Below are positions 1 to 57,026 of a DNA stretch of 57,026 bases, one piece after another. Position numbers and translations under genes: made by a program. Under the pieces are notes generated by a model that saw nothing but the letters and a program-made list of their open reading frames with translations, was not told where the DNA came from and did no database searches. The stretch is from a virus, in the IMG/VR virus record IMGVR_UViG_3300006162_000001; one strand, written 5' to 3'. Each line of letters starts with the position of its first letter. Within the stretch, counting starts at the first letter, position 1.

Positions 1-84
1 ATGTTCGAAAATGAACTGGAAAGGAAAGCCTACCTGGACGCCTTCACGAAATTCGCCACGACACAAATTGACCTGATTTATTAA
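1..84 (+). CDS. 3' fragment (27 codons + stop) of gene 56680..57000, duplicated by the terminal overlap
   Basis: MFENELERKAYLDAFTKFATTQIDLIY* is identical to the C-terminus of the 106-aa ORF at the right end. Confidence 0.85.
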   Translation: MFENELERKAYLDAFTKFATTQIDLIY

Positions 85-110
85 AAAGGAAAGCCCCGGA
101 TGGAAATTCG
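1..110. repeat. Terminal direct repeat (1-110 = 56917-57026). Assembly overlap of a circular or circularly permuted genome with unique length 56,916 bp
   Basis: Read directly: both copies run atgttcgaaaatgaactgg...ccccggatggaaattcg. The left boundary falls inside ORF 56680..57000. Confidence 0.9.
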
Positions 111-2145: not shown

Positions 2146-2343
2146 TTATGTTAATAATTGAAGAAGCGACCGGACGAATTCCTTTTCCACCATGAACATC
2201 CCCCCTTTAAAATAGAACTGAACATTCTTCCCGGAAATATAAACGGGGACCCGTTCTTCAATCACCTTCACACTTCCGGCCTGTTTAGTGTCCGCCGGGA
2301 AGTCTTTCACAGCCCTACAAAATATTTCGATTTTAGTGTTCAC
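2146..2343 (-). CDS. Hypothetical protein (GTG start)
   Basis: 65-aa ORF. The start GTG overlaps the upstream stop as GTGA, and there is no upstream ATG. Confidence 0.45.
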   Translation of the reverse strand: MNTKIEIFCRAVKDFPADTKQAGSVKVIEERVPVYISGKNVQFYFKGGMFMVEKEFVRSLLQLLT

Positions 2344-2738
2344 GATTTTAAAATTACACCTTTTCGATATCGGCCGGAAGAACTTTTTGTCACAACCATG
2401 GCATCAGTAATTAATCCATCCCTGGTCAGGACCACATGGACCCCATCTTTACTGAACCGTAAATAAGAGCGAAGGACCACCTTCTGGTCGTGGGGATCTT
2501 CCCATTTAGACCAGCATTCTGATGGTGAAATTACGGTTTCCGGGATTTCAGAAAACCCGCGAAGATGGGTTCTGACATTATTGAAAGATTGATTTGTGAA
2601 CCTGATATTAGTCAGAAGCTTATGGTTCTGGAAAACGATATCGTGATTTTTAGGATCCACATGGTATTTTTCACGCCATTCCGAAATCACCTGAAGGGCG
2701 TTGTGCATTCTGATATTTTCCTTATTTATTTTAGGCAT
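2340..2738 (-). CDS. Hypothetical protein
   Basis: 132-aa ORF, ATG start overlapping the GIY-YIG gene end by 8 nt. Confidence 0.55.
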   Translation of the reverse strand: MPKINKENIRMHNALQVISEWREKYHVDPKNHDIVFQNHKLLTNIRFTNQSFNNVRTHLRGFSEIPETVISPSECWSKWEDPHDQKVVLRSYLRFSKDGVHVVLTRDGLITDAMVVTKSSSGRYRKGVILKS

Positions 2739-3339
2739 AAATAAATGATGTTCTGTTTCTTTTTATGCCAGAAAGCATATTAGTTAAATACCCTCTTGAA
2801 AATCTGGTGGTTTTTGACGCCGATAAAATAGATGGATAAAATATCCCTGTTTCAATATTTAACACTGGTCTCTGACAATTCCCAGAACCGCATGGTGGTA
2901 TCCGACCCTTCTTCTTCTTACTCATTTTCTGTCTGGTCGCATCGGTGTGTTTTCGTCCGATATTAATATCCCGCATCCACTGAAGATATTCTGGGGTGTT
3001 TAATTTAATTCGGTTTTTGCATAACTTATCCCTTGTCGCTTCGCTTTTGGATTGATAAAAATCACCATTTTTGGGCAAACCAAGATTTAGACCATTGTGG
3101 CCCAAAACATCATACATGTGACCGTAAACGGATTCCACTTTGAACATTTCAGATTCGGCACACTCTGTAATGATTTCAAACTTATGATTTTCAGGCCCAT
3201 ATTTCAATAATGAAGCGTAAAGCTTAACCTGTCTTTTGCATTTTTTAAGCCGATAAACCCTAAATCTATATTCTACATTGGTAGAACTCCCCACATAAAC
3301 CTTACCGGTCGGGGATGTTATTTTATAGATATGGGCCAT
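2731..3339 (-). CDS. GIY-YIG homing endonuclease (I-TevI-like, with NUMOD-type DNA-binding repeats)
   Basis: MAHIYKITSPTGKVYVGSS..NVEYRF.. GIY-YIG core, then SEATRDKL / TDATRQKMSKKKKG repeats. The track start 3345 is TTG, and the first ATG is at 3339. Confidence 0.85.
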   Translation of the reverse strand: MAHIYKITSPTGKVYVGSSTNVEYRFRVYRLKKCKRQVKLYASLLKYGPENHKFEIITECAESEMFKVESVYGHMYDVLGHNGLNLGLPKNGDFYQSKSEATRDKLCKNRIKLNTPEYLQWMRDINIGRKHTDATRQKMSKKKKGRIPPCGSGNCQRPVLNIETGIFYPSILSASKTTRFSRGYLTNMLSGIKRNRTSFIYA

Positions 3340-3344
3340 TTTCA

Positions 3345-3375
3345 AAAATACTTTAAAAAAACTGTAAAATACTTT
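3345..3375. promoter_or_regulatory. Direct repeat AAAATACTTT x2 (21 bp apart) in a divergent intergenic region
   Basis: Copies at 3345-3354 and 3366-3375, between the minus-strand GIY-YIG start and the plus-strand island. Confidence 0.35.
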
Positions 3376-4129: not shown

Positions 4130-4326
4130 AACTATCTATTCACGAAAAGCCTGGCATGATCCAGGTCCTTAACGACCGGAAATCGGTCGTCTGCGAATAT
4201 TTCTTTAACGATCCGGAATATGCCTCTAACGCCGTCATCAGGATCCAGCAAATGGTCCAGGCGTTTAACCAGCTGCCGGAAGACCAGAAGAAGAAATCGC
4301 CCTTTTTGAAGAAGAATATTGAATAA
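4126..4326 (+). CDS. Hypothetical protein
   Basis: 66-aa ORF. The ATG overlaps the upstream stop (ATGA). Confidence 0.55.
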   Translation: MKLSIHEKPGMIQVLNDRKSVVCEYFFNDPEYASNAVIRIQQMVQAFNQLPEDQKKKSPFLKKNIE

Positions 4327-4384
4327 AGTTTTGCAGTTTCAAAAAGTTTTACTATATTGCATTGTCACTAAAAACTTATCACAA
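4321..4384 (+). promoter_or_regulatory. Conserved upstream element, copy B
   Basis: GAATAAAGTTTTGCAGTTTCAAAAAGTTTTAC ... AAAAACTTATCACAA-ATG. Matches copy A at 3376-3456. Confidence 0.4.
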
Positions 4385-5170
4385 ATGAAAAGTAACTATT
4401 TCGAAAAGAAAGAAGCCCAGCTGGAAGCTTACCAAAGGTTAGCGGCGAAGAATGCCAGCGAATCAGAAAGACTTTGCAATTATTCTTCCAGCATGCTGTC
4501 CGTCATACCGATGGGCCAGCCGATCCTGGTAGGTCACCATTCAGAACGTGGCCACCGTGCCCTTCTGGCCAAAGCTGATAACGCCATGTGGAAATCTGTG
4601 GAAGCCGATAAGAAGGCGGAATATTACGCCAACAAAGCGGAAAACATCGAAAGCGGATCCGCCATCAGTTCCGATAATCCGGACGCCATCCAGCTGTTAA
4701 AAGACAAGCTGGCCGGACTGGAAAAAAATCAGGAATTAATGAAAGCCTGTAATAAGATCACCGGGAACAAAAAACTTTCGGATCCGGAAAAGGTGGAAAA
4801 ACTTATGGCGCTGGGCCTGAAGGAATCCACAGCCAATGAAATCCTGATCCCCCATTATGGAAGGGCTGGAATTCCTTCTTACAAACTGACAAATAATTCA
4901 GCCGTGATCAGGTCCACAAAAGAAAGAATCGCCCAGCTGGAAAAAATCGCTGCCGTTCCGGAATCAAGCGAAGAAATAAACGGCGTAACTTTGAAGATCG
5001 TCCCAGATGATAACCGGGTGAAGATCCTGTTCCCTGCCATCCCATCGGAAGAAATGCGGAAAAACTTGAAAATGCGGGGATTTCACTGGTCACCCACAGA
5101 AAAAGCCTGGATGCGTCAGATCTCCAATGGCGCTATATATTGGGCCAAAGAAATACTTAAAGCCGGATAA
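4385..5170 (+). CDS. DUF3560-like protein
   Basis: GQPILVGHHSERGHRALLAKADNAMWKS...EYYANKAENIES and C-terminal RGFHWSPTEKAWMRQ resemble the DUF3560 family. The track start 4319 is TTG, and the ATG at 4385 follows the conserved leader. Confidence 0.5.
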   Translation: MKSNYFEKKEAQLEAYQRLAAKNASESERLCNYSSSMLSVIPMGQPILVGHHSERGHRALLAKADNAMWKSVEADKKAEYYANKAENIESGSAISSDNPDAIQLLKDKLAGLEKNQELMKACNKITGNKKLSDPEKVEKLMALGLKESTANEILIPHYGRAGIPSYKLTNNSAVIRSTKERIAQLEKIAAVPESSEEINGVTLKIVPDDNRVKILFPAIPSEEMRKNLKMRGFHWSPTEKAWMRQISNGAIYWAKEILKAG

Positions 5171-5821: not shown

Positions 5822-5998
5822 ATGGCAAAGACTTTACTGGAAAGGTTCCGGGAAACCCCGGACGACCTTTTCCCGGATGACGATCATCCAAACCGGCCGA
5901 ACCCGTTCACCGAAAAGGAAATGGAAGAAATCGGCAAAGCGATCGTGGAATCTCATAAGAACGATCCACCCGTACAGCCCAAAAAGAAGAAGGACTGA
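5822..5998 (+). CDS. Small acidic hypothetical protein (58 aa, below the ORF-track cutoff)
   Basis: ATG at 5822: MAKTLLERFRETPDDLFPDDDHPNRPNPFTEKEMEEIGKAIVESHKNDPPVQPKKKKD*. More protein-like than the listed overlapping frame 5814..6053. Confidence 0.5.
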   Translation: MAKTLLERFRETPDDLFPDDDHPNRPNPFTEKEMEEIGKAIVESHKNDPPVQPKKKKD

Positions 5999-6001
5999 TC
6001 C

Positions 6002-7312
6002 TTACTTCAGTAGTGCGGTATATTGTTCCAGGGTAATTTCCCCACGGTCATAGTACCCCTTCGTTATAGCCTTACACTTTTCTTCCAGGTTTTTAGGGAA
6101 TGTAATACTATTGAATTTCGCCCTGGACATAATCTGGGCTTTACCGGATCCCAGGGAATTGTCCATAATACTCACCTTCACGTTCTGAAGCTTGTCGTAT
6201 CCAGCCCGGTAAAGACTTTTGATGGTGTTGTAAGATCCTTCCGTATTCTTCAGGAAGGTGGACATGGGCACCAGACGGCCCATTTCCTTTTCATTGTGAA
6301 GCATGCGGTGAATTACGCCGTTCCAGGCGTCTTCAGGTCCCCGGTAAACATAAACCACGTCCACAGATTTACCGTCTGTTAAAAGCTGATCAATCTGCTT
6401 TTGCGCCTTTTCGTAGTTCGATAAGTTACCGTCCATTATGGCATCTGACTTCTTCCCCAGATCGGGGAATATTTTATCGATCGTGGAAGTCTTCCCAGCA
6501 CCGGATCCGCCGGCATAGAAAGAAACGTGATTATTTTCCCCTTCTTCCAGAAGTTCCTTATAAGCCCCTTTGGCCACCACGGAACTGGCTTCGTGGACAG
6601 CGGCGGCGTTCGACCCGTTATATCCCAGATCTTTGAATAATGGTCTGGCGGCGTCCGTATTGACGACATTCCCGTTTTCAGCCAGATATTCAGAAACCAG
6701 CCTGTCTTTTTCCAGAACCACCTTCAGGATGGAAGCTTCCTGAAGGGCGGCGTCAGCACCGGTCAATTCCTTATCCCTTTCGAAATTTTTGAATTCCTTC
6801 TTCTGGGCGTCAGTCATATCTTCTACTTCGTCATCAGTGATCGCCGGATGGATCTTCGGTTCCGGAAGGTCGAAGTCTTCAGCGTCCAGGGCGTTAGCGC
6901 TGGAAACTGCGTCAAAATAAGCCCCCGTGGATGGCATCATCCCGTCTTTGGCGGCGTTATATGCGAACTGTTCCCCCACGTTCGTTTCCAGGTACTTCTT
7001 AGCGTCTTCCGATGACGTGACATTCAGGTTATTTTCATCCAGGTATCTTCCGTCCACGGATTCACCGGTACAGCGGCAATTCCAGTCTATTGGCGGAAAG
7101 ATGGAATCCCCGTAATCGTCACCGATCAGGAAGACCAGCCCTTCCAGTTCAACGTGTTCCGGCCGTTCCCGGTCGTCCATCATCCCCTTATAAACCCAGT
7201 AGGGATATATATCCTTATCGGCTTGCATGTCTGTAAATTGCTGGGCGCTGACGGCCTGGCGGCGACAAGCTTCATATTCCACCCGAAGCCAGGTCTGGTT
7301 CTGCACGTCCAC
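6002..7312 (-). CDS. Head morphogenesis protein (Mu F / SPP1 gp7 family core) fused to a C-terminal zeta-toxin-like P-loop NTPase/kinase domain. This is the minimal ORF, from a GTG start
   Basis: YWVYKGMMDDRERPEHVELEGLVF...FPPIDWNCRCTG is the MuF signature. C-terminal FYAGGSGAGKTS (Walker A, 6488-6520) ...AIMDGN...GRLVP. The frame stays open upstream to 7852. Confidence 0.8.
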   Translation of the reverse strand: MDVQNQTWLRVEYEACRRQAVSAQQFTDMQADKDIYPYWVYKGMMDDRERPEHVELEGLVFLIGDDYGDSIFPPIDWNCRCTGESVDGRYLDENNLNVTSSEDAKKYLETNVGEQFAYNAAKDGMMPSTGAYFDAVSSANALDAEDFDLPEPKIHPAITDDEVEDMTDAQKKEFKNFERDKELTGADAALQEASILKVVLEKDRLVSEYLAENGNVVNTDAARPLFKDLGYNGSNAAAVHEASSVVAKGAYKELLEEGENNHVSFYAGGSGAGKTSTIDKIFPDLGKKSDAIMDGNLSNYEKAQKQIDQLLTDGKSVDVVYVYRGPEDAWNGVIHRMLHNEKEMGRLVPMSTFLKNTEGSYNTIKSLYRAGYDKLQNVKVSIMDNSLGSGKAQIMSRAKFNSITFPKNLEEKCKAITKGYYDRGEITLEQYTALLK

Positions 7313-7723
7313 ATAGGCGTTCGCGTCTTTGGAAAACTGGCTGTAAGACTTGACGTGGTTATTGTCATCGAATACTATGCTTTGAAGATCCCTGGCCTGG
7401 GCCCCGGTCTTCGCGGCGCTGAACTGGGCGGCGTTCAGTATGTACTTTTCGTAAATAGACGTGTCTTCGAAATCCTTAAAGGCGTGTTCGATCTTAGTAT
7501 TATCGATTATTTGCTGGAAAAACAGGTCGTTATACCGTTCGTAAAGGGGCGTGAAGATGACTTTGCCTTCCGGATTTTTGTAGATGAATTTCTTTTCTTC
7601 TTCCGTCAGCCCTTTGGGGATCAGTTCCTTTCGTCCGGATCCTTTCCCGGGGTCACCAGCCAGACGATCATGATTATGAACATGATGATCAGTCCCATGG
7701 GGATTTACCAGGATTTTTTTTTT
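7313..7723 (-). CDS. Start-codon-less in-frame upstream extension of the MuF ORF (137 codons down from the A10 tract), probably translated as part of the MuF protein
   Basis: My translation: KKKILVNPHGTDHHVHNHDRLAGDPGKGSGRKELIPKGLTEEEKKFIYKNPEGKVIFTPLYERYNDLFFQQIIDNTKIEHAFKDFEDTSIYEKYILNAAQFSAAKTGAQARDLQSIVFDDNNHVKSYSQFSKDANAY, continuous with VDVQNQTW. No ATG, GTG or TTG. Confidence 0.6.
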
Positions 7724-9258
7724 GCCCTGGCCATGGTCGGGATGGGCCTGGAAGATTGAACGTCCGGATCTGGATCCGGCTTTGGGGTCCCTTTGGGCGG
7801 TGCCGCCGGCGTGGGGGCGTCTTCCAGGAAGTCTTTGGATAATCCATTCGCTTCAAAGAAATCGTCCGTAAATCGCTTCCCATTGGCCACCACGACACTG
7901 GACAGGGCCGCCATTTCTTCAATGGTCAGCTGCTTTGCCCGGTTAATCTCAAAGCGCCACCCGTCAGGTAAACCCTTATACCATTTCCCGATCTTAGGCT
8001 GGAAGTCCGTGTTCATGAAGGAAACGACAAATTCCAGCTTTGACTTGACGACTTGCTGGAACATCCTTTCATGGACTTCACCCAGGGACCGGGATCCGGA
8101 TCCTGACTTCGATCCACTGGATGACAGCGTTCCCCCCAGGATCAGTTCGCGGATTTCATTCTTCTGGTCTTCATTGAATTCCGCATAAATCTTATACATG
8201 TTATTCCCCGCCTTCGTTTCCTGGAAGTCCACATCGATGGCTTTCACGATTTCACCCTTCGGATCTATCGTATAGGGGAAGACCAAAGCCTGGGAAGGGT
8301 CTATATTGGCGGCGATCGTTTCCGCCTGGGTCTTATAAAGATTTTGCTGGTTCCCGGATCCATCCACAGATCCGTCATTCTGGGGATAACCGATCGTCAT
8401 CAGGGGGAAAGCCAGACGGCGGCCGGCGGAAAGCCAGTTGTTATTCGAAAGGTTCATCTGGATAAACGACCTGGTGATGGGTTGCATCCACCCCAGGAAG
8501 CTTTCGTAAGACGTGGACGGCTGGACAAAAAGAAGGTTATCGTGTTCGGAAAAGTCGAAGCCGTCATAAAAGGAATAGGTGGAATTCTTCAGAAACCGGT
8601 TTATTGGATCGATTTCCTGCATGGGGTACTTATAAATCTTTCCTTTAACAGGATCGAAGTTAAGCCCGGAAAAACCCCAGAAGAAGGAAAAAAGGATTTC
8701 CCGGCGAAGCTGGATCTGCCAGGGCTTATTGCACATTTCTTCCGTCATTTCATCTATCCGGTTCCCATTGCGGTCCGTGATATAGAATTCCGTTTCATCG
8801 ATGGCGGTGGCAAGTTTCTGGAAAAGCATCTGCACAAAGGGGGACGATTCGAAAGCCCAGTTCACCATGGTCGCATAAGACATGGTGTATCCCATCTGGA
8901 TGGCCTGGTCACAAGCCTGTCGCCAGGTGGTAAGGTTCCAGTCCACATAATAGTTCGAAGGGAACGTCTGGCTGACGATGTTCAGACCCGTGGACTTCGG
9001 GATGATGAACGGGTTCTGGGAAGGACCGGTTCCGGTCGCTGGGACGATATGTGGCCCCGAAGGAACACCGTATCCGCCGCCATCCTGGCCCTGGCCGCCG
9101 ATATTATTCCCGTATCCGCCGGAAGGCGTGGGGGCCTGGGGGACGCTATTAAATGGGGCGCTGATATTGCCGCCCGTTATCGCCATCTTTTCAGTGGCCA
9201 GCTGTTCGCGCCTTTTCAGCACTTCTGGGTCTTTGTTTCGTCTATCTCTCCGTGACAT
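7705..9258 (-). CDS. Portal protein (Mu gp29-like, DUF935 family)
   Basis: 517 aa. ...GGTLSSSGSKSGSGSRSLGEVHERMF... and the overall layout resemble DUF935 portals. It sits immediately upstream of the MuF gene and has a Gly/Pro-rich low-complexity N-terminal region. Confidence 0.75.
   Translation of the reverse strand: MSRRDRRNKDPEVLKRREQLATEKMAITGGNISAPFNSVPQAPTPSGGYGNNIGGQGQDGGGYGVPSGPHIVPATGTGPSQNPFIIPKSTGLNIVSQTFPSNYYVDWNLTTWRQACDQAIQMGYTMSYATMVNWAFESSPFVQMLFQKLATAIDETEFYITDRNGNRIDEMTEEMCNKPWQIQLRREILFSFFWGFSGLNFDPVKGKIYKYPMQEIDPINRFLKNSTYSFYDGFDFSEHDNLLFVQPSTSYESFLGWMQPITRSFIQMNLSNNNWLSAGRRLAFPLMTIGYPQNDGSVDGSGNQQNLYKTQAETIAANIDPSQALVFPYTIDPKGEIVKAIDVDFQETKAGNNMYKIYAEFNEDQKNEIRELILGGTLSSSGSKSGSGSRSLGEVHERMFQQVVKSKLEFVVSFMNTDFQPKIGKWYKGLPDGWRFEINRAKQLTIEEMAALSSVVVANGKRFTDDFFEANGLSKDFLEDAPTPAAPPKGTPKPDPDPDVQSSRPIPTMARAKKKSW
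7714..7723 (-). promoter_or_regulatory. A10 homopolymer (T10 on plus strand): candidate -1 frameshift or transcriptional-slippage site linking the portal and MuF frames
   Basis: Portal frame reads GCA AAA AAA AAA TCC TGG TAA. The MuF frame reads GGC AAA AAA AAA ATC CTG and is -1 relative to the portal frame. Confidence 0.5.
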
Positions 9259-11987: not shown

Positions 11988-14900
11988 TTAAAAGGTATTA
12001 CTATAAAATTGGACATGCAAATTAGCCCTTTGTGCATTGGAAGCGGAAGTCATATTGATATTTCCATTACTCATGGACGCCGGTCCCGCTGACGTGGCGG
12101 CGGTATAGATACCCTGGAATAAATAAGCCCCACCCATGTTCACGCTGGTCGCACTTCCGATCGGTGCAAAGAAACCACCGGAAGCGGCTGAATTGATCGC
12201 ATTGTTACCGAAAACGGTATAGGCCGCCCCGGTATAGGTGGAAGCGCTGGAAATCACCACGCCGATATAATAGACGCCGGGCGTGATATTCACGTTCATC
12301 GGAAGTGTCAGGGCTCTCATTCCCTGGATGACGGTATTGTTCGAAGTGGATCCGGTATGTTGTACCGTGAAGGCATTAAGTGCTGATCCTGAAGATGCCA
12401 GGGACAGTGTGGATCCGTTCAGGGTATATACGCCCATCCACAAAGAAAGATTGATCGATCCCGTAGTGGCTGACGTGTTCGTCTGGGCGGACAGGGATCC
12501 GGCGATCAGGGCCGCTGTGGCGGTGACATTATAGGGGATATAGACTTGCTGAATGCTTAAAGATCCCTGGCCTATCGTATTAAGGGACACGAAGGCGTCT
12601 TCCATGCCATCCCACCGGCTTAAAGTCGCCGGGGCGGGGAAGCCCATGGAAAGGGTGGATCCGTTCTGGACCACAGAAAGTCCCCCAGTGGCGCTTATGC
12701 TGGAAGTATTGGGCGCTGAAATCTGGATGGATCCGTTAGAATAGCCACCCGTCATCGCCCCCAGGAAGTTATAAGACAGCGTTCTGGCGTCAAAAGTGGA
12801 TGAACTGTTCTGGGTGGTGTTCCCCAGGGCGTACATTCCCACGGTCTGGTTAGACTGGGCCGGGATGGATCCTGTTATCGTGGACCCGTTAAGTCCGAAA
12901 CTGACGTTGTTACTGTTCGAAAAGACGACCGTCTGAAGGTTATTCGAAGTCGTACCGGCGGAAACATTTATGGCACCACCACCACCAGGGGCGGCGACAC
13001 TCAAAGACATGCCATTACTGTAAACCGTCCCGGATATGTTTGTCCCGCCGATTGTGGCGCTGGAATTACCCATGATCCACAGCTGGGACTGGCTTCCGGA
13101 CTGCATGGCGGTCGTCAAAGCATTGGGGGCGGAAAACTGGATAGACCCGTTAGAATAACCGATTGTCAGGGATCCGATCGCATTCAGCGAAAGGACACTG
13201 TTCGCCAGGTTAGTCGAACTGTTCTGGGTGGTATTGCCCAGGGCGTAAAGACTTACACTTTGGTTTACGGATCCGGAAATCGTCTGGCCATTGATCGTAA
13301 AGGACACGCCGTTCGCATTCGTAAACCTGGCCGTACCAGTGGATATACTATTCGCCCCATCGTAAAGGACCACGCCGCCGCCACCACCAGTCTGGGATAT
13401 CTGGATGGATCCATTACTGAATCCGACCGTGATATTCCCCACCCCATTGAATGACAGATTCGAAGCATTTAAGACGGTACTGGAATTCTGGGTGGTATTG
13501 CCCAGGGCGTAAAGCGATATGTTCTGATTGGACTGGGCCGCCACAGAAGCCGAAACGGTCTGTCCGTTTATGCTGAATGACACCCCATTAGCATTCGTGA
13601 AGCGAATGGTCCCGGTTGAAATGCTGTTCGCCCCATCATAAACGGCCTGGATATTACTTTGGGTCTGGGCCGATTGTGCCGGGTAAGAGACAGTTGCCGT
13701 CACTGTTCCCCCGTTCAGGCCGAAGGATATACTGTTCGAATTACTGAAGACGAAAGCGGACAGGTTGCTGGAAGTTGTCCCCGCTGAAAGATTGATATTA
13801 CTCAAAGTCACAGCATTGGACAGCATGGCTGTCGTCAGGGCGTTCGGGGCGCTGAACTGGATCGATCCATTGGAATAGCCTATCGTCAGGGATCCGATGG
13901 CATTTAACGATACAGCGGCGGCACCGATCACAGATGAACTGTTTTGGGTCGTATTACCCAAAGCATAGAACGAAATATTTTGATTGGACTGGGTGGGGAC
14001 AGTGTAGGATCCCGTGAGCACGGAATTCCCGGAAAGTCCGAAAGCCAGTCCATTGGAATTGGCGAAGGTGAAGGCGGAAGCATTCAGCGAAGTGGTGCCA
14101 GCTGACAGGTTAATATTGGAAATCGTCACGGCGTTCGACTGCATGGCCGTAGTCAGATAATTGGTCTGGACGGTCGCTGTCACGGTGGATCCGTTAAGAC
14201 CGAAGCTGACGCCGTTAGAATTACTGAAGACGACCTGGCCCAGCGCCATCGTAGTCGTGCCGGCCGATAAGCTTCCCGCCGCCGCCCCACCTACTGAAGC
14301 GGTGACGGTGGAACCATTCAGGCCAAAAGACACCCCATTGGAATTCGAAAAGACAAAAGCGCTCAAATTATTCGAAGTGGTCCCGGCGGACAGATTTACA
14401 GCTGTCAGGGATGTGGCGATCGATCCGGTGACAGTTGACCCGTTAAGACCGAAGGACACGTTATTCGAATTACTGAAGACAATATTCGAAAGGTTCTGGC
14501 TGGTGGTACCAGCGGAAAAATTGATATTAGTCAGACTGGTGGCGATGGAAGCCGATATCGTATTCCCGTTTATGCTGAAGGATACGTTATTGGCGTTCGT
14601 AAAGCGGATCGTCCCGGTGGATATGCTATTGGCCCCGTCATAGATCGCCTGGATATTGCTTTGGGTTTGTGCTGACTGGACAGGGACAGAAACCTGGATG
14701 GATCCATTTGAGAATCCCAGGGTCGCCGCCCCCAGTCCGTTATAAGACAGGTTGCTGGCGTTCAATACGGTGCTGCTATTTTGCGTAGTGTTCCCCAGGG
14801 CGTAAAGACTGATATTCTGGTTAGACTGGGAAAAGCTGGCTGTGACAGTGGAAATATTCAGCCCGAAACTGATACTATTGGAATTACTGAATACCACCTG

Positions 14901-16175
14901 GCCCAAAGCCATGCTGGTGGTCCCAGCTGACAGGCTACCAGCGGCGGCACCACCCACGGAAGCCGTGACAGTAGATCCGTTCAATCCGAAAGAAACGCCA
15001 TTCGAATTACTGAAGATGATGTTCGAAAGATTCTGGCTGGTAGTTCCGGCGCTGAAGTTTATGTTCGTCAGTGACGTGGCTATGCTGGCGGTGATCGTAG
15101 ATCCGTTTAATCCAAAGCTTACGCCATTGGAATTCGAATAAACCCATTTAGAAAGATTCTGGGAAGTTGTTCCCGCTGACAGGTTAATATTCGAAAGGGT
15201 GACAGCATTGGAAGCCATCGCTGTCGTCAGGTAGTTCCCGGCACTTTGAAGGGCTGTGGTGATATTTGACGCCAGCCCCCAGGTGATCGTGGATCCATTG
15301 GATGATGATGACAGGCTGGATCCGGTGGCGAAACTCATAGCCCCGGTACTTCCATTTATGCTATTGACGACCTGGTTACTTTGCGCCGCTGTGGTCAGGT
15401 AATTCGTCTGGACAGAAGCCGTCATCGTCTGGCCGTTCATCCCGAAGGACACGCCATTGGAATTGGACCAGACTACTGTCCCGGAAGTGGCCTGGGCGGC
15501 ACCAGCGCTGATCCCGCTGATCCCCGTCTGGGCGGCACCGGCATTGACGGAAGCATAAATACTTCCATTGGAATTACTGAAGGAAACGCCGTTCGTATTG
15601 ACAAAATTCAACGTCTGGAAGGCGGATGATCCACCCTGGGCGCTGAATGCCTGGTTACTTTGTGAACTAAGGAACGCCGGGAAGTTCAGGGACAGTCCGC
15701 TGGAATTGGCGGTGACGGATACGCCGTTCGCCGTCAGGGCGGTATTGGTCCCCATGAAATTACTTCCGGCATTGGAAGCCATGGCGGTCGTTAGATAGTT
15801 AGTCTGCACGGAAGCGGTCATCGTGGATCCATTCATCCCGAAGCTGACCCCATTGGAATTACTGAAGACGATCGCCGATAAATTCTGGCTGGTCGTCCCA
15901 CCGGAAACATTGATATTGGAAAGGGTGACAGCATTGGAAAGCATCGCTGTCGTTAGATAGTTCCCCTGGCTTTGGTAGTTTGTGAAGACGCTGGCGGTGA
16001 CGGTGGATCCGACATTCCCGAAGGTCACGCCGTTCGCATTGGAAAAATACCAGTTAGATCCGGCCGGACCTTGCTGTCCAATACCATTGGACACATAAAT
16101 GTTATACGCCATCGCCGGGATCAGGATATCCGTGGTCAGGTTATTATAGACTATTTCGATATTGACTTCCCCCAT
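11988..16175 (-). CDS. Giant tandem-repeat fibre-like protein (1395 aa), N/S/T/G-rich and nearly uncharged, with a non-repetitive C-terminal domain
   Basis: Dozens of about 25-30-aa units of the form AGTTSQNLSxxVFSNSNGVSFGLNGSTVTAS. A distinct C-terminal domain of about 230 aa starts near ...LSRWDGMEDAF. Confidence 0.8.
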   Translation of the reverse strand: MGEVNIEIVYNNLTTDILIPAMAYNIYVSNGIGQQGPAGSNWYFSNANGVTFGNVGSTVTASVFTNYQSQGNYLTTAMLSNAVTLSNINVSGGTTSQNLSAIVFSNSNGVSFGMNGSTMTASVQTNYLTTAMASNAGSNFMGTNTALTANGVSVTANSSGLSLNFPAFLSSQSNQAFSAQGGSSAFQTLNFVNTNGVSFSNSNGSIYASVNAGAAQTGISGISAGAAQATSGTVVWSNSNGVSFGMNGQTMTASVQTNYLTTAAQSNQVVNSINGSTGAMSFATGSSLSSSSNGSTITWGLASNITTALQSAGNYLTTAMASNAVTLSNINLSAGTTSQNLSKWVYSNSNGVSFGLNGSTITASIATSLTNINFSAGTTSQNLSNIIFSNSNGVSFGLNGSTVTASVGGAAAGSLSAGTTSMALGQVVFSNSNSISFGLNISTVTASFSQSNQNISLYALGNTTQNSSTVLNASNLSYNGLGAATLGFSNGSIQVSVPVQSAQTQSNIQAIYDGANSISTGTIRFTNANNVSFSINGNTISASIATSLTNINFSAGTTSQNLSNIVFSNSNNVSFGLNGSTVTGSIATSLTAVNLSAGTTSNNLSAFVFSNSNGVSFGLNGSTVTASVGGAAAGSLSAGTTTMALGQVVFSNSNGVSFGLNGSTVTATVQTNYLTTAMQSNAVTISNINLSAGTTSLNASAFTFANSNGLAFGLSGNSVLTGSYTVPTQSNQNISFYALGNTTQNSSSVIGAAAVSLNAIGSLTIGYSNGSIQFSAPNALTTAMLSNAVTLSNINLSAGTTSSNLSAFVFSNSNSISFGLNGGTVTATVSYPAQSAQTQSNIQAVYDGANSISTGTIRFTNANGVSFSINGQTVSASVAAQSNQNISLYALGNTTQNSSTVLNASNLSFNGVGNITVGFSNGSIQISQTGGGGGVVLYDGANSISTGTARFTNANGVSFTINGQTISGSVNQSVSLYALGNTTQNSSTNLANSVLSLNAIGSLTIGYSNGSIQFSAPNALTTAMQSGSQSQLWIMGNSSATIGGTNISGTVYSNGMSLSVAAPGGGGAINVSAGTTSNNLQTVVFSNSNNVSFGLNGSTITGSIPAQSNQTVGMYALGNTTQNSSSTFDARTLSYNFLGAMTGGYSNGSIQISAPNTSSISATGGLSVVQNGSTLSMGFPAPATLSRWDGMEDAFVSLNTIGQGSLSIQQVYIPYNVTATAALIAGSLSAQTNTSATTGSINLSLWMGVYTLNGSTLSLASSGSALNAFTVQHTGSTSNNTVIQGMRALTLPMNVNITPGVYYIGVVISSASTYTGAAYTVFGNNAINSAASGGFFAPIGSATSVNMGGAYLFQGIYTAATSAGPASMSNGNINMTSASNAQRANLHVQFYSNTF
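12700..16060 (-). repeat. Intragenic tandem and higher-order coding repeats of the 1395-aa protein (approximate bounds)
   Basis: Long segments recur nearly verbatim, e.g. SIATSLTNINFSAGTTSQNLSNI, VGGAAAGSLSAGTT.MALGQVVFSNSN, QSNQNISLYALGNTTQNSSTVLNASNLS, SAQTQSNIQA.YDGANSISTGTIRFTNAN and LNAIGSLTIGYSNGSIQFSAPNALTTAM, each at least twice. Confidence 0.8.
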
Positions 16176-16594: not shown

Positions 16595-18118
16595 TCACAA
16601 AGTGACTTTCGGCAACCTACTAACCGTGGACAGCCCACCCGGGGCCAGGCGGTTGTGGCGGTTCACAAAAAGGGAATATTCATCCGGGAAAGCCTGGTAA
16701 ATGAAGTCTTTCAGCGTATCGGTTAAGTGACCGTTATGTTCATAAGACGGGCCGCCTTCATAATCCGCCTTACGGATCTTCAGGATCCCGCCATCTTTAT
16801 CGGTCTTCGCTTCCAGGTAGTCGTTAATCGACTGCTTACAGGACCGGCTGATATGGATCCTGGCGAAAGTCAATTCCTGGGTGAAGATGGCATTACAGAA
16901 TTCACCCATCGACCGGACTGGCGGGGCGTAGGGATGGATCCTGTCCACCGTCCTGAAGCCGGCCAGGATCAGCGTTTCATCGATGATCTGGAAAAAGCTT
17001 CTTTTCGCGTCATCGATATTGTTCCGGGACTTCGTGGACCGGTCGCCATACCAGAAGACGGTTCCGACATATCCGATCGACTTCAGCCAGTTGACGATCT
17101 TCCTTCCGGCCGCTGAAGCGGTATTTTCCGGATCCGAAGCGGGAAGTTCATGGATCTGGTTCACGTCCCAGATCGTCTGGTTATTTTCGAATTTCTTTTC
17201 CAGCTGCCAGCATGTTATGGCGATATGTGGATAAACATTCGAATCCATGGAAATATGGATCGTGGTGGCCGGATTATAGGGAAGGATCCGGGAAGCATGT
17301 GTCTTTTCATTGAAGCCGCGAAGGAATTCCCCGCCTGTCTTCCTTCGGGCCCACAGTCCCAGGCAATAAACCCGGTAAGAATATTCCGACACTTTGGCCA
17401 GTCCTTCGTAGTAGGCTTTCCGTTCCGGTGGACAGTATCGGTTATCGTAAAAAGTGCTGTGGGTGGCCCGGTATGTCAGTTCGGCGATCGTGCCATCGTT
17501 TAAGACTTCGGTGATCTTCCTGGTGAAATTTAGATCCTGGATGGGGTTTCCGTTTTCTTCACAGAAATAGCGCTTATAAAGCCAGAAGTCTTCGTAAGCC
17601 TGGCCGCCGGGGATATCAGGATTGAAGGAATAATCGATCTGGACTTTTTGCCGGTTAGACCGAAGGGATGTGGTGATGATCGTCCAGTCTTCTTCTTCAA
17701 TGTCGGATCCTTCTTCGATCCAGGCATCCGTGGGATCCGTCAGTGACTTGATCTTTTTGGGGTCATCCAGACCACGGCCCAGGAAGACGCCGCCAGATAT
17801 ACACCTTATTTCCAGGGGATGGGTGGTGAAGATGAAAAGCCCGGAAATCTTCCATTCTTCCACGATCGACCTAATAAGCGCCCACTGCGAATCTTTCACT
17901 GTATTCGCAACCTTCCTGATCAGGGCACATTTGAAGTGCCTGTTCGATAAACACTTCAGTATCTTCCGCTGTGCTATATCCCGGCTCTTTCCGCTGTCCC
18001 TGGACCCATAAAGAAATTCTATATCGTAAGTATGATCCAATAGGTGGCGGTAAACGGGAAGGGAAGCTTCCGGGTCGTAGTCCACCGATATTTTTTTCCG
18101 GTAAACCCTGGTTTCCAT
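16595..18118 (-). CDS. terL: Terminase large subunit
   Basis: 507 aa. Walker A FLYGSRDSGKSRD, C-terminal nuclease-like half, preceded by a small-terminase-like ORF. Confidence 0.9.
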   Translation of the reverse strand: METRVYRKKISVDYDPEASLPVYRHLLDHTYDIEFLYGSRDSGKSRDIAQRKILKCLSNRHFKCALIRKVANTVKDSQWALIRSIVEEWKISGLFIFTTHPLEIRCISGGVFLGRGLDDPKKIKSLTDPTDAWIEEGSDIEEEDWTIITTSLRSNRQKVQIDYSFNPDIPGGQAYEDFWLYKRYFCEENGNPIQDLNFTRKITEVLNDGTIAELTYRATHSTFYDNRYCPPERKAYYEGLAKVSEYSYRVYCLGLWARRKTGGEFLRGFNEKTHASRILPYNPATTIHISMDSNVYPHIAITCWQLEKKFENNQTIWDVNQIHELPASDPENTASAAGRKIVNWLKSIGYVGTVFWYGDRSTKSRNNIDDAKRSFFQIIDETLILAGFRTVDRIHPYAPPVRSMGEFCNAIFTQELTFARIHISRSCKQSINDYLEAKTDKDGGILKIRKADYEGGPSYEHNGHLTDTLKDFIYQAFPDEYSLFVNRHNRLAPGGLSTVSRLPKVTL

Positions 18119-22260: not shown

Positions 22261-22857
22261 TTAATCGATATTTCCCGGATCGATCCGGCTTGTTGGTGAA
22301 GTCATGATATGATAAGTCGGGAAATTTTTGCTTTTTTTATATTTCGCCCCACATAACATCATGTTATGGATCAATTCGAAATCGTGGCCATATTCCGGAA
22401 GTCTTTCTGGCATCTGCTTTAAGAATTCCGTCCGGATGATCACGGCATTATCCCCGATATATCCCCACTTCAGCTTGTAATTCTTCCTTTCCCCCAGGAC
22501 AAAGGAATCGAAGTACACAAAGTCCAGATCCGTCCCTTCGATCGCTGACAGGTAGTTTTCGATGTGGTGTAGTTCGACCAGGTCATCATTAGCCAGGAAC
22601 ATGAAATAAGTGCCGGTGGCGGCCTGGATGGACAGGTTCGTGATCTGGTATCCCCAGAATCCGCCATTCTTCCGCTGGTTCCAGGCTAAGATCCGGGGAT
22701 CCTTCAGAAGTTCGGCATGGCGGTCGAAGTAGGGACAGTTATCCCCCACGATGAAAGCTTCCCAGTCCTTTTCCGTCTGGTTCAGAAGACAGCGGATCAT
22801 TCGCTGGGTCCGTTCCGGGCGAAGGTAAACAGGCATTGAAAGGGTGACTTTTGGCAT
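22261..22857 (-). CDS. Family 2 glycosyltransferase (short, soluble)
   Basis: VTLSMPVYLRPERTQRMIRCLLNQTEKDWEAFIVGDNCP and FMFLANDD are typical GT2 N-terminal and DxD motifs. Confidence 0.75.
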   Translation of the reverse strand: MPKVTLSMPVYLRPERTQRMIRCLLNQTEKDWEAFIVGDNCPYFDRHAELLKDPRILAWNQRKNGGFWGYQITNLSIQAATGTYFMFLANDDLVELHHIENYLSAIEGTDLDFVYFDSFVLGERKNYKLKWGYIGDNAVIIRTEFLKQMPERLPEYGHDFELIHNMMLCGAKYKKSKNFPTYHIMTSPTSRIDPGNID

Positions 22858-23106
22858 TTATTCGTCTTTGGTAAACTGAATGTAAGCGATGGAAATAAGT
22901 ACCAGGAACAGGCCGCCGATCATCAGCACATAAACCCACCAGGGATAAGCGACCGCGGCCCCGCCATCCGGATAGACTTCGAAGTCACCCACCCCCAGCG
23001 CCATGGCGATCTGGCCCGTGATGATCATCAGGACCCCGGCGATTCCAGCCCACTGGAACGCCTTAAAAACAATATACTTTTCGGCAAGGGATTCATCTAT
23101 TTTCAT
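22858..23106 (-). CDS. Small membrane protein (2 TM)
   Basis: Hydrophobic segments WAGIAGVLMIITGQIAMALGV and WWVYVLMIGGLFLVLISIAYI. Abuts the GT2 start. Confidence 0.6.
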   Translation of the reverse strand: MKIDESLAEKYIVFKAFQWAGIAGVLMIITGQIAMALGVGDFEVYPDGGAAVAYPWWVYVLMIGGLFLVLISIAYIQFTKDE

Positions 23107-23660
23107 AAGCTTTCCCGCATGTTTATGGTGTAAGTTTCGTAATTCGGGTGCTTCTTATTGGCACCCAGTTCCCTGGCCGGATTCCCCACGTAAACCTTAT
23201 AAGGTTCGGTGACCAGCTTTTTGGTGACGATGGCACCCATCCCGATCATGACGCCGGTGGCGACCCTTTGCTTTTGGTGGATGATGGCCCCCAGGCCGAT
23301 GTTCGCGTCACCTTCCACGACCGTGTGGCCGCCGATGATAGCATGACAGGAAAGGGTCACCAGGTCCCCGATCCGGGCATCATGGCCGATATGGACACCC
23401 TTCATGATATAGCATTCATTTTCGATCCAGGTCATCCCGTCAGCGCCGGAATCGATCGTGACGTGGCCGGTGATCACATTATTCCAGCCGATCTTTACAT
23501 TCCCGAACTGGCGATCCCTTCCACGCCATTCGGCCGGTGCCCCGATAATACAGAAGGGCCCGATCCGGTTGCCTTCGCCGATCACCACGCCTGGATAGAT
23601 CACGGCCGTTTCATGAATGTCGTTTCCCGGATACCGGTCATTATTGCTTAATGTCGTCAT
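23103..23660 (-). CDS. LpxA-like left-handed beta-helix (hexapeptide) acyltransferase lacking the LpxA C-terminal helical domain
   Basis: IHETAVIYPGVVIGEGNRIGPFCIIGAPAE and VHIGHDARIGDLVTLSCHAIIGGHTVVEGDANIGLGAIIHQ parallel E. coli LpxA [26 protein letters not shown] and AHIAHDCTVGN. 185 aa, compared with about 260 for LpxA. Confidence 0.7.
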   Translation of the reverse strand: MTTLSNNDRYPGNDIHETAVIYPGVVIGEGNRIGPFCIIGAPAEWRGRDRQFGNVKIGWNNVITGHVTIDSGADGMTWIENECYIMKGVHIGHDARIGDLVTLSCHAIIGGHTVVEGDANIGLGAIIHQKQRVATGVMIGMGAIVTKKLVTEPYKVYVGNPARELGANKKHPNYETYTINMRESL

Positions 23661-29240: not shown

Positions 29241-29780
29241 TTATTGATTTGATTGTATTCTATTTCTGTATGAAAGAACACTTGCGCATTTTCTGGAACA
29301 AGTCGCATTTACATTTCTTGGTGGAATAAATTCAGCACCACAAACAACACACTTCCTGATTTCGCCCGTTTTGCAGAATTTCCTGGTTTTAAAATTATGA
29401 TTTTCCTTACCACTTCCGCTTGTTGGTTTTGCGTTCCCGTGCTTATATCCGTGAAGGATGTTTTCAGACTGGGTACACCATTCCAGATTTGAAATCGAAT
29501 TATCAGAAGGAATTGAATTTTTGTGATTAACAACGTTTTTACCCTTTATCATAGGGATAAAAGCTTCAGCGATCAATCTATGAATAAACACACTTTTCCC
29601 TTGAATTAATACAAAATAATACCCCTTATTGCTGACACAAATAGACAAAAACCGACTTCTTTGACGTAAAACCCTACCATTTTTTTGGGTAATATACCTA
29701 TCGATACTTCTTACCCCTCCCTGGTCAGATATTTCATAAAATCCACTAAAACCATTAATTTTTCTCCATTCTTCATTCAT
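29241..29780 (-). CDS. HNH homing endonuclease with N-terminal NUMOD4 motif
   Basis: WRKINGFSGFYEISDQGGVRS (NUMOD4) and VVNHKNSIPSDNSISNLEWCTQSENILH (HNH_3). Confidence 0.85.
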   Translation of the reverse strand: MNEEWRKINGFSGFYEISDQGGVRSIDRYITQKNGRVLRQRSRFLSICVSNKGYYFVLIQGKSVFIHRLIAEAFIPMIKGKNVVNHKNSIPSDNSISNLEWCTQSENILHGYKHGNAKPTSGSGKENHNFKTRKFCKTGEIRKCVVCGAEFIPPRNVNATCSRKCASVLSYRNRIQSNQ

Positions 29781-30226: not shown

Positions 30227-30862
30227 TTATCCGCCGTATGGTAAGTCAGACGGTTCAAATTTTTCGCCTTTTGCCGCTTTCGCAGCCGCCAGAAGCTTTT
30301 CTTCCGTGGCTTTGGAAACCTTCATGGCCATCTTTATCTTTTCCAGTGTCGTGGTCCCGGCGACCAGCTTCTTCACGGCCCCATCGAATTCTTTGGTCCC
30401 TGCATTCATCCATGGGATTTCGGCTTTTTGTGCCGCCGCCGGTCTGGGTGTCGGGGCCGCCTTCGTCACCGGCTGGGAAGCCGTTTCGGCGTCATCATCT
30501 TCGATGTTCAGTCCCAGGATGGCCGCCAAAGCATAGCGCCGCATGTACGTCAGGGCGCTTCCAGCCCCTTGCGGATCGTTTCTGGCCGGCGTCATGTTAT
30601 ATGTCGCCTGGATGAATTCGCCGCTGGTGTGCATCAGGATAGTCGTCAGGGCGTTTTCCCCGTCAGGGAACTGGACGAAAGACAGATCGCTTTCCCCCAG
30701 GGCGTCCGTGATGGCTTCCAGGATGGCGGACAGGGAAGCGTAGTTGTTCTTAAAATGGGGATTCTGGGAATCCTTTTTGATCACGTCCACCTTCACATGG
30801 AAGACCATAAGGGCCCGGCTGATATTGCCGATCGTGGGGGACTTTGTTAGATTAGGTTGCAT
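30227..30862 (-). CDS. erf: ERF-family single-strand annealing recombinase
   Basis: VIKKDSQNPHFKNNYASLSAILEAITDAL...DPQGAGSALTYMRRYALAAILGL are typical ERF motifs. Confidence 0.8.
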   Translation of the reverse strand: MQPNLTKSPTIGNISRALMVFHVKVDVIKKDSQNPHFKNNYASLSAILEAITDALGESDLSFVQFPDGENALTTILMHTSGEFIQATYNMTPARNDPQGAGSALTYMRRYALAAILGLNIEDDDAETASQPVTKAAPTPRPAAAQKAEIPWMNAGTKEFDGAVKKLVAGTTTLEKIKMAMKVSKATEEKLLAAAKAAKGEKFEPSDLPYGG

Positions 30863-56683: not shown

Positions 56684-57000
56684 TTATCACCTACGGCGAA
56701 CTGCACGCCCTTTTAAGCGATATCGAAGTCCAACAAAACAGATCCCCGGCTTTCACCCTGTTCCACCGGGGGAACATTAAAAGACTTTTTGAACAGAACA
56801 GGATCCGGATCCAGACCCTTCAGGAAACCCTGAAGAAGCTGGTCCAGGAACACGCTGCAAAAGATGAAAACGGGAATCCTGTCCTTACCACGGCGGAAAA
56901 TGGCACCCAGCAACTAATGTTCGAAAATGAACTGGAAAGGAAAGCCTACCTGGACGCCTTCACGAAATTCGCCACGACACAAATTGACCTGATTTATTAA
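56680..57000 (+). CDS. Hypothetical protein
   Basis: 106-aa ORF. The ATG overlaps the upstream stop (ATGA). Followed by the bidirectional terminator (copy at 90-120). Confidence 0.6.
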   Translation: MIITYGELHALLSDIEVQQNRSPAFTLFHRGNIKRLFEQNRIRIQTLQETLKKLVQEHAAKDENGNPVLTTAENGTQQLMFENELERKAYLDAFTKFATTQIDLIY

Positions 57001-57026
57001 AAAGGAAAGCCCCGGATGGAAATTCG
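56917..57026. repeat. Right copy of the 110-bp terminal overlap
   Basis: Identical to bases 1-110. Confidence 0.9.

Follow-up and report, generated by a model that had tools for sequence, protein, structure and literature searches.

A zeta-type kinase on a start-less MuF frame, probably expressed by slippage at the end of a phage portal gene

Results

The portal-MuF-kinase locus

The phage sequence IMGVR_UViG_3300006162_000001 from IMG/VR, a stretch of 57,026 nt that was analysed at its full length and is called the window here, encodes a kinase at the C-terminus of a MuF head protein. The gene is listed as a minus-strand open reading frame (ORF) of 436 aa with a GTG start (6002..7312), and a sequence-only reading had taken it for an independent MuF head protein carrying a zeta-toxin-like P-loop kinase, a candidate effector packaged in the capsid and ejected with the DNA. 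The kinase is indeed joined to a MuF domain (Phage_Mu_F, E 1.1e-12) next to the portal gene; the protein is, however, not an independent one: its frame lacks a start codon and seems to extend the portal by recoding. The manner in which this protein is produced is the larger, unexpected point of our analysis. The locus consists of the following features; related sequences and proteins are cited by L and P numbers.

7705..9258 (-), portal gene, 517 aa, matching Portal_Mu (E 4.6e-26, residues 140-469) and ending in the zero frame with ...ARAKKKSW and stop
7714..7723 (-), run of ten A's (A10; T10 on the plus strand), the proposed recoding site, located by sequence
6002..7723 (-), open extension in the -1 frame (linker, MuF and zeta-type kinase), 1085 aa when joined to the portal
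7313..7713 (-), conserved N-terminal MuF segment KKK-ILV...IPKGLTEEEKKFIYKNPEGKVIFTPLY...YILNAAQFSAAK with no in-frame ATG, GTG or TTG, defined by translation, PHROG and the alignment of 19 lineages
7067..7348 (-), MuF core ending in DWNCRC (Pfam Phage_Mu_F, 49.2 bits, cut-off 29.6)
6803..6895 (-), acidic linker between MuF and kinase, where homology to MuF-PBECR relatives stops
6005..6802 (-), zeta kinase domain of the ng_zeta1 type, 266 aa, identified by Pfam, by a profile against 6EPH and by an AlphaFold (AF2) model with Foldseek

The portal gene ends in GCA-AAA-AAA-AAA-TCC-TGG-TAA, and the MuF frame is -1 relative to it. The A10 run in this sequence is the longest homopolymer in the window and lies two codons before the portal stop. 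By translation, the MuF frame is open upstream of GTG 7312 to beyond 7801, and the -1 frame as a whole is open for 574 codons; its stretch from the portal stop (TAA 7705..7707) to 7312 contains neither ATG nor GTG nor TTG (137 codons). MuF homology starts 19 residues past the portal stop in tblastn comparisons with relatives and 50 residues past it in PHROG. Because MuF conservation extends upstream of GTG 7312, we rejected this codon as the true start, which would cut conserved MuF sequence. Either a -1 slip or the addition of one A (simulated as A11) leads from the portal into the MuF frame as ...ARAKKK-ILVNPHGTDHH..., giving a portal-MuF-kinase of 1085 aa with the predicted junction peptide ...TMARAKKKILVNPHGTDHH....

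Membership of the MuF family follows from the matched domain and from the portal gene immediately upstream. The MuF protein also matches the PHROG family 'minor head protein and DNA pilot' (E 2.8e-27), and TIGR01641 (phageSPP1_gp7) scores 37.4 bits, just below its cut-off. The consensus of the kinase family, F.RD..L.G.DA..QE, begins at the acidic linker.

Conservation of the slippery run

We compared DNA from 19 distinct lineages (~40-70% amino-acid identity). The A-run is found at the identical position in 19/19, with the following frame relations between portal and MuF.

16 lineages, A9-A11 run, out of frame, -1 needed
1 lineage (L011), A10 run, out of frame, +1 needed
2 lineages (L015 and L016), A11 run, in frame, single ORF

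In L015 and L016, any slip by +1 or -1 leads to a stop within 1-24 codons and to a portal-only protein. Among the out-of-frame lineages, no canonical start is conserved 3′ of the run. In the MuF frame, amino-acid conservation sets in right at the run, with the pattern KKK-IL[IV]-G.EY ... IP..L[ST]EEE..YIY.N..GK.IFTP.Y, and the in-frame fusions P0161, P0174, P0175 and P0188 align with the predicted product across the junction, including a His-rich stretch. On the portal side, KKK followed by 0-6 residues forms the C-terminus of 106 of the 116 portal-only homologues (49-72% identity). Lys is encoded in this phage by AAA in 42% and by AAG in 58% of cases, and since AAA is the minority codon, three in a row are unlikely by chance (~7%), with recurrence in every lineage far less likely.

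Two groups of phages serve as natural controls. In the Flavobacterium phages lotta8-2 and FPSV-S27 the run is missing, and MuF has an ATG immediately behind the portal stop; in the Porphyromonas phages, which likewise have no run, portal and MuF form a hard in-frame fusion of 854 aa. The A10 and -1 arrangement itself occurs in a cultured phage, the Winogradskyella phage Peternella_1 (MT732475.1, Winoviridae), in which the run lies at L020:2247-2256 (~16959-16968 of the record), the MuF frame is open from inside the run and the MuF start in GenBank is annotated ~120 nt downstream of it. Peternella_1 offers an experimental system for the recoding hypothesis.

Three side observations concern the junction and the MuF frame. 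The His-rich stretch HGTDHHVHNHD (7661..7701, minus strand) lies directly 3′ of the slip site, is also present in in-frame portal-MuF fusions (HTHGNHSHGVFEH), is absent from L005, L007 and L008, and may be a metal-binding linker. A hydrophobic ORF of 24 codons, MGLIIMFIIMIVWLVTPGKDPDERN (7625..7699, minus strand), follows the run in the +1 frame, overlaps the start of the MuF frame and is probably spurious. In L007:3340-4560 (IMGVR_UViG_3300045049_000327), MuF is interrupted within DWN|CRC by an insert of ~350 aa that starts with Cys (CLEPESLVLT...) and ends with ...VHN before a Cys, which are hallmarks of inteins; the Pfam families Intein_splicing, Hint_2 and PT-HINT match this insert below their thresholds only.

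The kinase domain

That 6005..6802 encodes a kinase domain of the ng_zeta1 type is, in our view, virtually certain. In the Pfam scan, Zeta_toxin (PF06414) matched the minus-strand ORF ending at 6002 with E 4e-16 and 59.5 bits (cut-off 22.3), and AAA_33 gave no match for the window protein. Of the two kinase types offered by the sequence-only reading, zeta is therefore borne out, by hidden Markov model, profile and fold alike, and AAA_33 is not; the Zeta_toxin profile search and the structure prediction that it had suggested both came out in favour of a zeta kinase. The motifs that it had quoted (FPPIDWNCRCTG, the acidic linker, AIMDGN, VYVYRGPEDAW and GRLVP) are all present in 6002..7312 (-), and the match to a MuF-kinase goes well beyond what chance would give. 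Two of its positions needed correction: the Walker A motif spans 6485..6520, not 6488-6520, and the C-terminal kinase, which it had placed within 6002-6700, begins ~100 nt further upstream.

The only solved structure retrieved by sequence was ng_zeta1 (6EPH), with E 1.9e-5 in a single-sequence search and E 3.2e-16 with a profile of 16 family sequences that aligned over residues 20-265, that is, the entire kinase domain. The AF2 model of the 266 aa, built with a 46-sequence alignment, reached a predicted local distance difference test (pLDDT) of 96.3 and a predicted template modelling score (pTM) of 0.90. In Foldseek it matched ng_zeta1 (6EPI) with a template modelling (TM) score of 0.79, a root mean square deviation of 3.2 Å and E 8.8e-12. 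TM scores of 0.43-0.50 were obtained for classical zeta (1GVN, 0.48), PezT (2P5T) and AvrRxo1, and polynucleotide kinases were also among the matches. Because classical zeta and PezT were found weakly by fold and not by sequence profile, we rejected this assignment and did not file the domain with the UDP-N-acetylglucosamine 3′-kinases. The residues on which the comparison with ng_zeta1 turns are encoded as follows.

6653..6655 (-), Asp of VVNTD, 5′ of the P-loop, aligned with the catalytic Asp56 of ng_zeta1
6485..6520 (-), Walker A motif or P-loop, FYAGGSGAGKTS, seen in the sequence, with the Lys codon 6491..6493 corresponding to K115 of ng_zeta1
6275..6307 (-), two Arg codons (6305..6307 and 6275..6277), aligned with Arg175 and Arg181 of ng_zeta1

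In ng_zeta1, K115 is the P-loop Lys, and the K115A variant is inactive and non-toxic; Asp56, the base, precedes the P-loop, which sets it apart from Asp67 of classical zeta; Arg175 and Arg181 bind the phosphates of the substrate (Rocker et al. 2018, PMC5923241). The P-loop of the window kinase reads GGSGAGKTS, and its Lys, which aligns with K115, is invariant in the 16 closer family members. The Asp of VVNTD and both aligned Arg residues are invariant in all 46 aligned members. Judged from its sequence, the domain is very probably an active kinase of the ng_zeta1 subclass.

The likeness to ng_zeta1 (6EPG, 6EPH and 6EPI) thus covers the fold, the catalytic Asp preceding the P-loop, the P-loop Lys and the two phosphate-binding Arg residues. 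The two proteins nevertheless share only ~20% identity, and the C-terminal domain of ng_zeta1 (residues ~270-401) is absent from the window kinase. They also differ in setting: ng_zeta1 belongs to the plasmid epsilon1/zeta1 toxin-antitoxin operon of Neisseria gonorrhoeae, in which it is accompanied by the epsilon1 antitoxin gene, whereas the window kinase is fused to a phage structural protein and has no such gene.

Distribution of the kinase and neighbouring genes

An exhaustive HMMER search of 1.84 billion representatives returned 2,895 proteins at E<=1e-3 and 784 at E<=1e-30, and the top matches are nearly all 700-1,000+ aa long with the kinase at the extreme C-terminus. PF06414 was found in 55/55 sampled relatives and Pfam MuF in only 3/55; the other sampled carriers have transglycosylase or ART-PolyVal domains, or nothing recognisable. 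One carrier (P0005, 784 aa) is encoded in a podovirus-like structural module, after an SU10-type adaptor. Matches in BFVD are large uncharacterised Caudovirales proteins, one of which pairs a P-loop kinase with Acb1. At the nucleotide level, the window had no match among 50,697 GenBank phages.

Beyond the portal-MuF-kinase locus, the argument draws on the following genes.

5822..5998 (+), convergent acidic ORF of 58 aa, 33% identical (E 9e-8) to an equivalently placed 62-aa ORF in L008
3457..5998 (+), opposite-strand cassette of ORFs, including a DUF3560 gene, that interrupts the late operon just past the kinase
4319..5170 (+), DUF3560 gene (E 2.8e-38)
2731..3345 (-), GIY-YIG/NUMOD3 homing endonuclease gene, assigned by domain match, which overlaps the start of the PBECR2 ORF
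2340..2738 (-), stand-alone PBECR2 ORF (Pfam PBECR2, 28.4 bits), 48% identical (E 3e-39) to the C-terminus of MuF in L005
53833..56379 (-), head protein of 848 aa with a prohead-protease-like N-terminus, matching the PHROG families 'major head and protease protein' and 'major head protein'

The neighbourhood of kinase and DUF3560 is also found in L008 (6778-7572), L002 (1568-2239) and L017 (11481-11945), so that DUF3560 occurs within a few kb of the kinase in four contexts, which comprise fused and stand-alone kinases and myo-like and podo-like phages. The stand-alone kinase homologues P0002-P0004 adjoin DUF3560 or LPD29 genes. The recurrent proximity of DUF3560 suggests a functional link to the kinase.

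The stand-alone PBECR2 ORF, which relative to the kinase lies beyond the opposite-strand cassette and the GIY-YIG gene, can be read from its sequence as the detached ancestral C-terminal cargo of MuF. In the simplest history, the kinase and the convergent cassette were inserted into the MuF-PBECR linker (~6803..6895), replacing the cargo and leaving PBECR as a separate gene. The same arrangement of kinase and cassette as in the window is found in L008.

The sequence-only reading had also pointed out the 58-aa ORF, which ends 3 nt from the MuF stop as described there, and had observed that no co-directional immunity-like gene follows; the next gene is convergent indeed. Its toxin and immunity framing gained no support, as we recognised no epsilon- or PezA-like or other immunity gene and found no upstream or co-directional small gene at the locus. 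Both the 58-aa ORF and a convergent 88-aa ORF are conserved in L008, neither matched anything in Pfam, PHROG, NCBIfam, PADLOC or the Protein Data Bank (PDB), and no homologue of either lies beside the stand-alone kinases. We regard the 58-aa ORF as a real conserved gene and as a weak candidate inhibitor only; a role as antitoxin was rejected, since neither a family nor a structure matched it and the stand-alone kinases have no homologue of it beside them. Small Lys-rich ORFs that follow the kinases in L001 and L017 resemble each other weakly (E 1e-5, no composition correction applied), a similarity that we discarded as unreliable. The defence-system models of PADLOC returned nothing.

Some further observations concern the window as a whole. 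Its first and last 110 bp (1..110 and 56917..57026) are an exact direct repeat, so that the window represents a circularly assembled, complete phage genome of ~56,916 bp, and a second assembly (L004) runs across the circular junction. Between the terminase and portal genes lies an ORF of 1395 aa (11988..16175, minus strand) with no Pfam or PHROG match, an unusual position for an ORF of such size. Genes for a family-2 glycosyltransferase and a hexapeptide-repeat acyltransferase (22261..22857 and 23103..23660, minus strand) might serve surface or DNA modification, and a link between them and a kinase acting on UDP-sugars is speculative. At 29241..29780 and 30227..30862 (minus strand), the phage encodes a further homing endonuclease (HNH_3/NUMOD4) and a recombinase of the ERF family. 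Among the ORFs scanned, which were part of all ORFs, HTH_3 and ERF were present and no integrase or transposase was found. No tRNAs were found in the window. A scan of a genome collection gave no clear prophage, only two weak loci in an uncultured metagenome-assembled genome.

Discussion

The explanation that we favour, with somewhat more than even confidence in the whole, is that the window encodes an ng_zeta1-type kinase as cargo on a portal-MuF polypeptide that is made by slippage and delivered by the virion. For the expression step taken by itself, we have good confidence that the MuF-kinase is produced as a slippage-dependent fusion to the portal. By a slip at A10, one locus would yield two proteins, the 517-aa portal and, as the minority product, a portal-MuF-kinase of 1085 aa. 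The likelier mechanism would be RNA polymerase slippage that adds one A, with a -1 ribosomal slip on A-AAA-AAA as the alternative. No consensus pairs were found downstream of the run with RNAalifold, the z-score of the single sequence was -0.9, and a downstream frameshift stimulator was rejected as none is conserved. The slippage is probably transcriptional, because the run measures 9-11 nt, the shift varies among lineages and there is no conserved RNA structure; the run is also longer than a ribosomal heptamer requires.

Transcriptional slippage on A-runs is known from Thermus dnaX and from IS elements, and -1 frameshifts in phage structural genes include the tail chaperone G/GT, T7 10A/10B and the major head protein of phage A2 (examples are cited in PMC10885494). 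The window would resemble these systems in making a structural protein with a C-terminal extension as a minor product, by way of a slippery homopolymer close to where the short ORF ends, with the efficiency of the slip setting the product ratio. It differs from them in the site, which is the portal gene, and in the extension, which consists of MuF and an enzyme; moreover, known phage recoding uses a heptamer and a stimulator, whereas the clade of the window has 9-11 A's and frame relations of -1, +1 and 0. No prior description of portal-MuF recoding was found in the searchable literature, which does not include most subscription journals.

Several points weigh against parts of this picture. 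The support for the portal-MuF-kinase fusion as a product comes from sequence data, and the -1 relation in 16 of the 17 out-of-frame lineages may reflect common descent and fits ribosomal frameshifting equally well. In the sole +1 lineage (L011:3948-3972, TBL_comb47_HYPODRAFT_10001622) one base is missing just 3′ of A10, which could mean either that the frame relation truly differs there or that the assembly is wrong. A kinase covalently linked to the portal speaks against ejection unless the link is cleaved, no cleavage site was identified in the predicted fusion, and the Peptidase_S78 match of the 848-aa head protein is below threshold (20.3 bits, cut-off 21). The host is deduced solely from the closest cultured phages, which are 27-38% identical and infect Bacteroidota. 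As regards substrate specificity, Lys59 of ng_zeta1 is an Arg in the window kinase, and Asn75, a contact to UDP-N-acetylmuramic acid (UNAM), has no clear equivalent, its position falling beside a family-specific G-Y-x-G-x-N motif.

Under the virion-delivery reading, a few long subunits would join the portal ring. The C-terminus of portal proteins faces the capsid interior, so that MuF and kinase would lie inside the head, at the portal. The efficiency of recoding would set a low copy number; SPP1 gp7 is present in 1-2 copies per capsid (as cited in PMC5576092), which matches a slip of low efficiency. The cargo would then be cut free, perhaps by the prohead protease, and leave with the DNA into the host, probably a member of the Bacteroidota; the 848-aa head protein is a weak candidate for the release of the cargo from the portal. 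What MuF carries at its C-terminus varies among relatives (the kinase in the window and in L008, PBECR in most, another domain in Peternella_1 and nothing in L034), which fits a virion-delivered effector. We put the chances that the kinase is ejected at about even.

The kinase might instead act late in the producing cell, draining peptidoglycan precursors for lysis or host shut-off, with its presence in the head being incidental or portal-bound. Such a role would suit a gene in the late structural operon, a covalent portal fusion that has no obvious exit route, and the lack of an immunity gene, which a cell about to lyse does not need; expression of ng_zeta1 leads to lysis ~60 min after induction (PMC5923241). 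On the other side, attachment to MuF or portal recurs for many unrelated effectors that are sensible only on delivery (PMC5512222), the same kinase domain terminates other large proteins of virion modules, and in relatives the cargo position is swapped with an RNase domain. We consider an action confined to the producing cell unlikely.

By analogy with ng_zeta1, the kinase would use ATP to phosphorylate a UDP-sugar precursor of the cell wall, or a nucleotide-linked metabolite of similar kind, at a hydroxyl, and a UDP-sugar is our tentative proposal for the substrate, held at slightly less than even confidence. A zeta-fold kinase could also act in counter-defence on another substrate, such as NAD+ (as AvrRxo1 does), a nucleotide immune signal, or the 5′-OH end of RNA or DNA. 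This would accommodate the Foldseek matches to AvrRxo1 and polynucleotide kinases, the Arg in place of Lys59 and the lack of a clear counterpart to the UNAM contact Asn75, the G-Y-x-G-x-N motif, which is the family's own and invariant within it, the neighbours typical of polyvalent proteins (DUF3560, LPD29 and PBECR2) and the pairing of a P-loop kinase with Acb1 in BFVD. However, ng_zeta1 is far closer (TM 0.79 versus <=0.5, and the sole sequence-profile match), and the Asp before the P-loop and both phosphate-binding Arg residues are shared specifically with it, so that we give a wholly different substrate a rather low probability.

Turning to expression, a free-standing MuF-kinase would have its own start, at GTG 7312 (436 aa) or at an ATC, CTG or ATT after the run, and the A-tract would be the unstructured leader of a host that does not use Shine-Dalgarno sequences. 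Gene callers picked GTG 7312 in the window and TTG or ATG at equivalent sites in relatives, and many lineages have an ATC, ATT or ATA right behind the run. Initiation in Bacteroidota, which the closest cultured relatives infect, relies on A-rich leaders. Yet a start at GTG 7312 drops ~130 conserved residues and clips the Pfam MuF domain, a canonical start is conserved in no lineage, amino-acid conservation begins within the run at KKK-IL, and the in-frame A11 fusions are collinear through the junction. A leader, moreover, needs no exact A9-A11 run against a codon usage that favours AAG, and the relatives without the run have an ordinary ATG. An independent start is thus distinctly improbable.

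A further alternative does without programmed recoding, with A10 being a homopolymer error of sequencing or assembly, or one state of phase variation in the DNA, and the functional genome carrying A11 and an obligatory fusion. Errors and replication slippage occur readily in long homopolymers, an in-frame A11 is found in two sequenced relatives, and hard in-frame fusions exist in the Porphyromonas phages. An assembly error was rejected, however, as independent assemblies are identical at A10: L004 does not differ from the window across the slip site, and the exact 517-aa portal is encoded on 4 contigs from three sources (JGI, Logan and ENA). Phase variation was rejected as well, since no record of an in-frame 1085-aa variant exists for this phage, the protein being absent from a collection of 15 billion sequences. 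In addition, 17 lineages are out of frame, 106/116 portal clusters stop just after KKK, and no single run length restores the frame everywhere, because L010, despite its A11, requires -1, and L011 requires +1. We therefore regard an obligatory fusion as very unlikely.

Finally, a toxin-antitoxin or polymorphic-toxin module with the 58-aa ORF as antitoxin or immunity protein can hardly be correct: this ORF abuts the kinase stop and is conserved in the sole other MuF-kinase lineage, and a small ORF follows most MuF toxins (Jamet et al. 2017, PMC5576092), but the 58-aa ORF is convergent, not co-directional, belongs to a larger opposite-strand cassette, is missing beside the stand-alone kinase homologues and resembles neither epsilon, PezA or ng_epsilon1 nor any entry of Pfam, PHROG, PADLOC or PDB.

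The idea of a MuF-borne effector is reasonable and already published as a class. MuF-zeta fusions were described computationally as injected effectors (Iyer, Burroughs, Anand, de Souza, Aravind 2017, PMC5512222), with exactly the architecture seen here, a MuF anchor and a zeta-like kinase cargo; the window is a further example of an architecture known since 2017. The same work describes PBECR domains fused "to MuF and portal domains" and lists portal-MuF-PBECR likewise as injected effectors, but as a computational catalogue it does not report a MuF lacking a start or linked to the portal by a slippery run. The window also resembles the polyvalent proteins of Iyer et al. in its neighbouring genes with PBECR2, DUF3560 and, in relatives, LPD29. 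The window protein itself has merely two or three domains; with portal, MuF and kinase in the recoded product and a late-gene context, it would be a minimal polyvalent protein.

Single-ORF portal-MuF(-PBECR) fusions (Iyer et al. 2017; Porphyromonas gingivalis phages, e.g., BK068094) have the same domain order as the 1085-aa product. They carry PBECR, whereas the cargo of the window is a kinase, and the P. gingivalis fusions have no A-run at the junction, whereas the two halves in the window are in different frames and a slip is needed. The polymorphic MuF toxins of Jamet et al. (2017, PMC5576092) share the position of MuF directly 3′ of the portal gene and a variable C-terminal enzymatic domain. 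Zeta kinases are, however, not among the toxin domains mentioned there, most of those toxins have a small downstream ORF where the window has no co-directional small immunity ORF, and they come from temperate phages; for the phage of the window, the scanned ORFs show HTH_3 and ERF and no integrase or transposase. SPP1 gp7 and Mu gpF have in common with the window protein the Pfam family Phage_Mu_F, a gene position 3′ of the portal and a low copy number at the portal; they are separately translated and bind the portal non-covalently, whereas the association in the window would be covalent at synthesis.

Taken alone, the MuF-zeta cargo is one more well-supported example of the class described in 2017. 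The tie to the ng_zeta1 subclass, with its known chemistry, provides a concrete substrate hypothesis for >2,800 phage protein clusters. Regarding expression, it is likely, in our estimate, that a large clade of Mu-like phages relies on programmed slippage, with the A9-A11 run near the portal stop as its site; this clade would comprise the phage of the window, Peternella_1 and >100 portal clusters and most likely infects Bacteroidota. If so, a fixed minority of the portal subunits would carry MuF and an exchangeable enzyme (an RNase, a kinase or another), and the run would add to phage structural genes a conserved type of recoding site that had not been described before. The 'MuF' genes of such phages, metagenomic and cultured alike, would be systematically mis-annotated as truncated or mis-started ORFs. 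These results raise the questions of how MuF-anchored effectors reach the capsid interior and whether an enzyme tethered to the portal can be released and ejected. Slippage at the portal would be a simple mechanism to load a few effector copies at the portal, and it would account for the number of copies in which an effector tethered to the portal inside the head is present.

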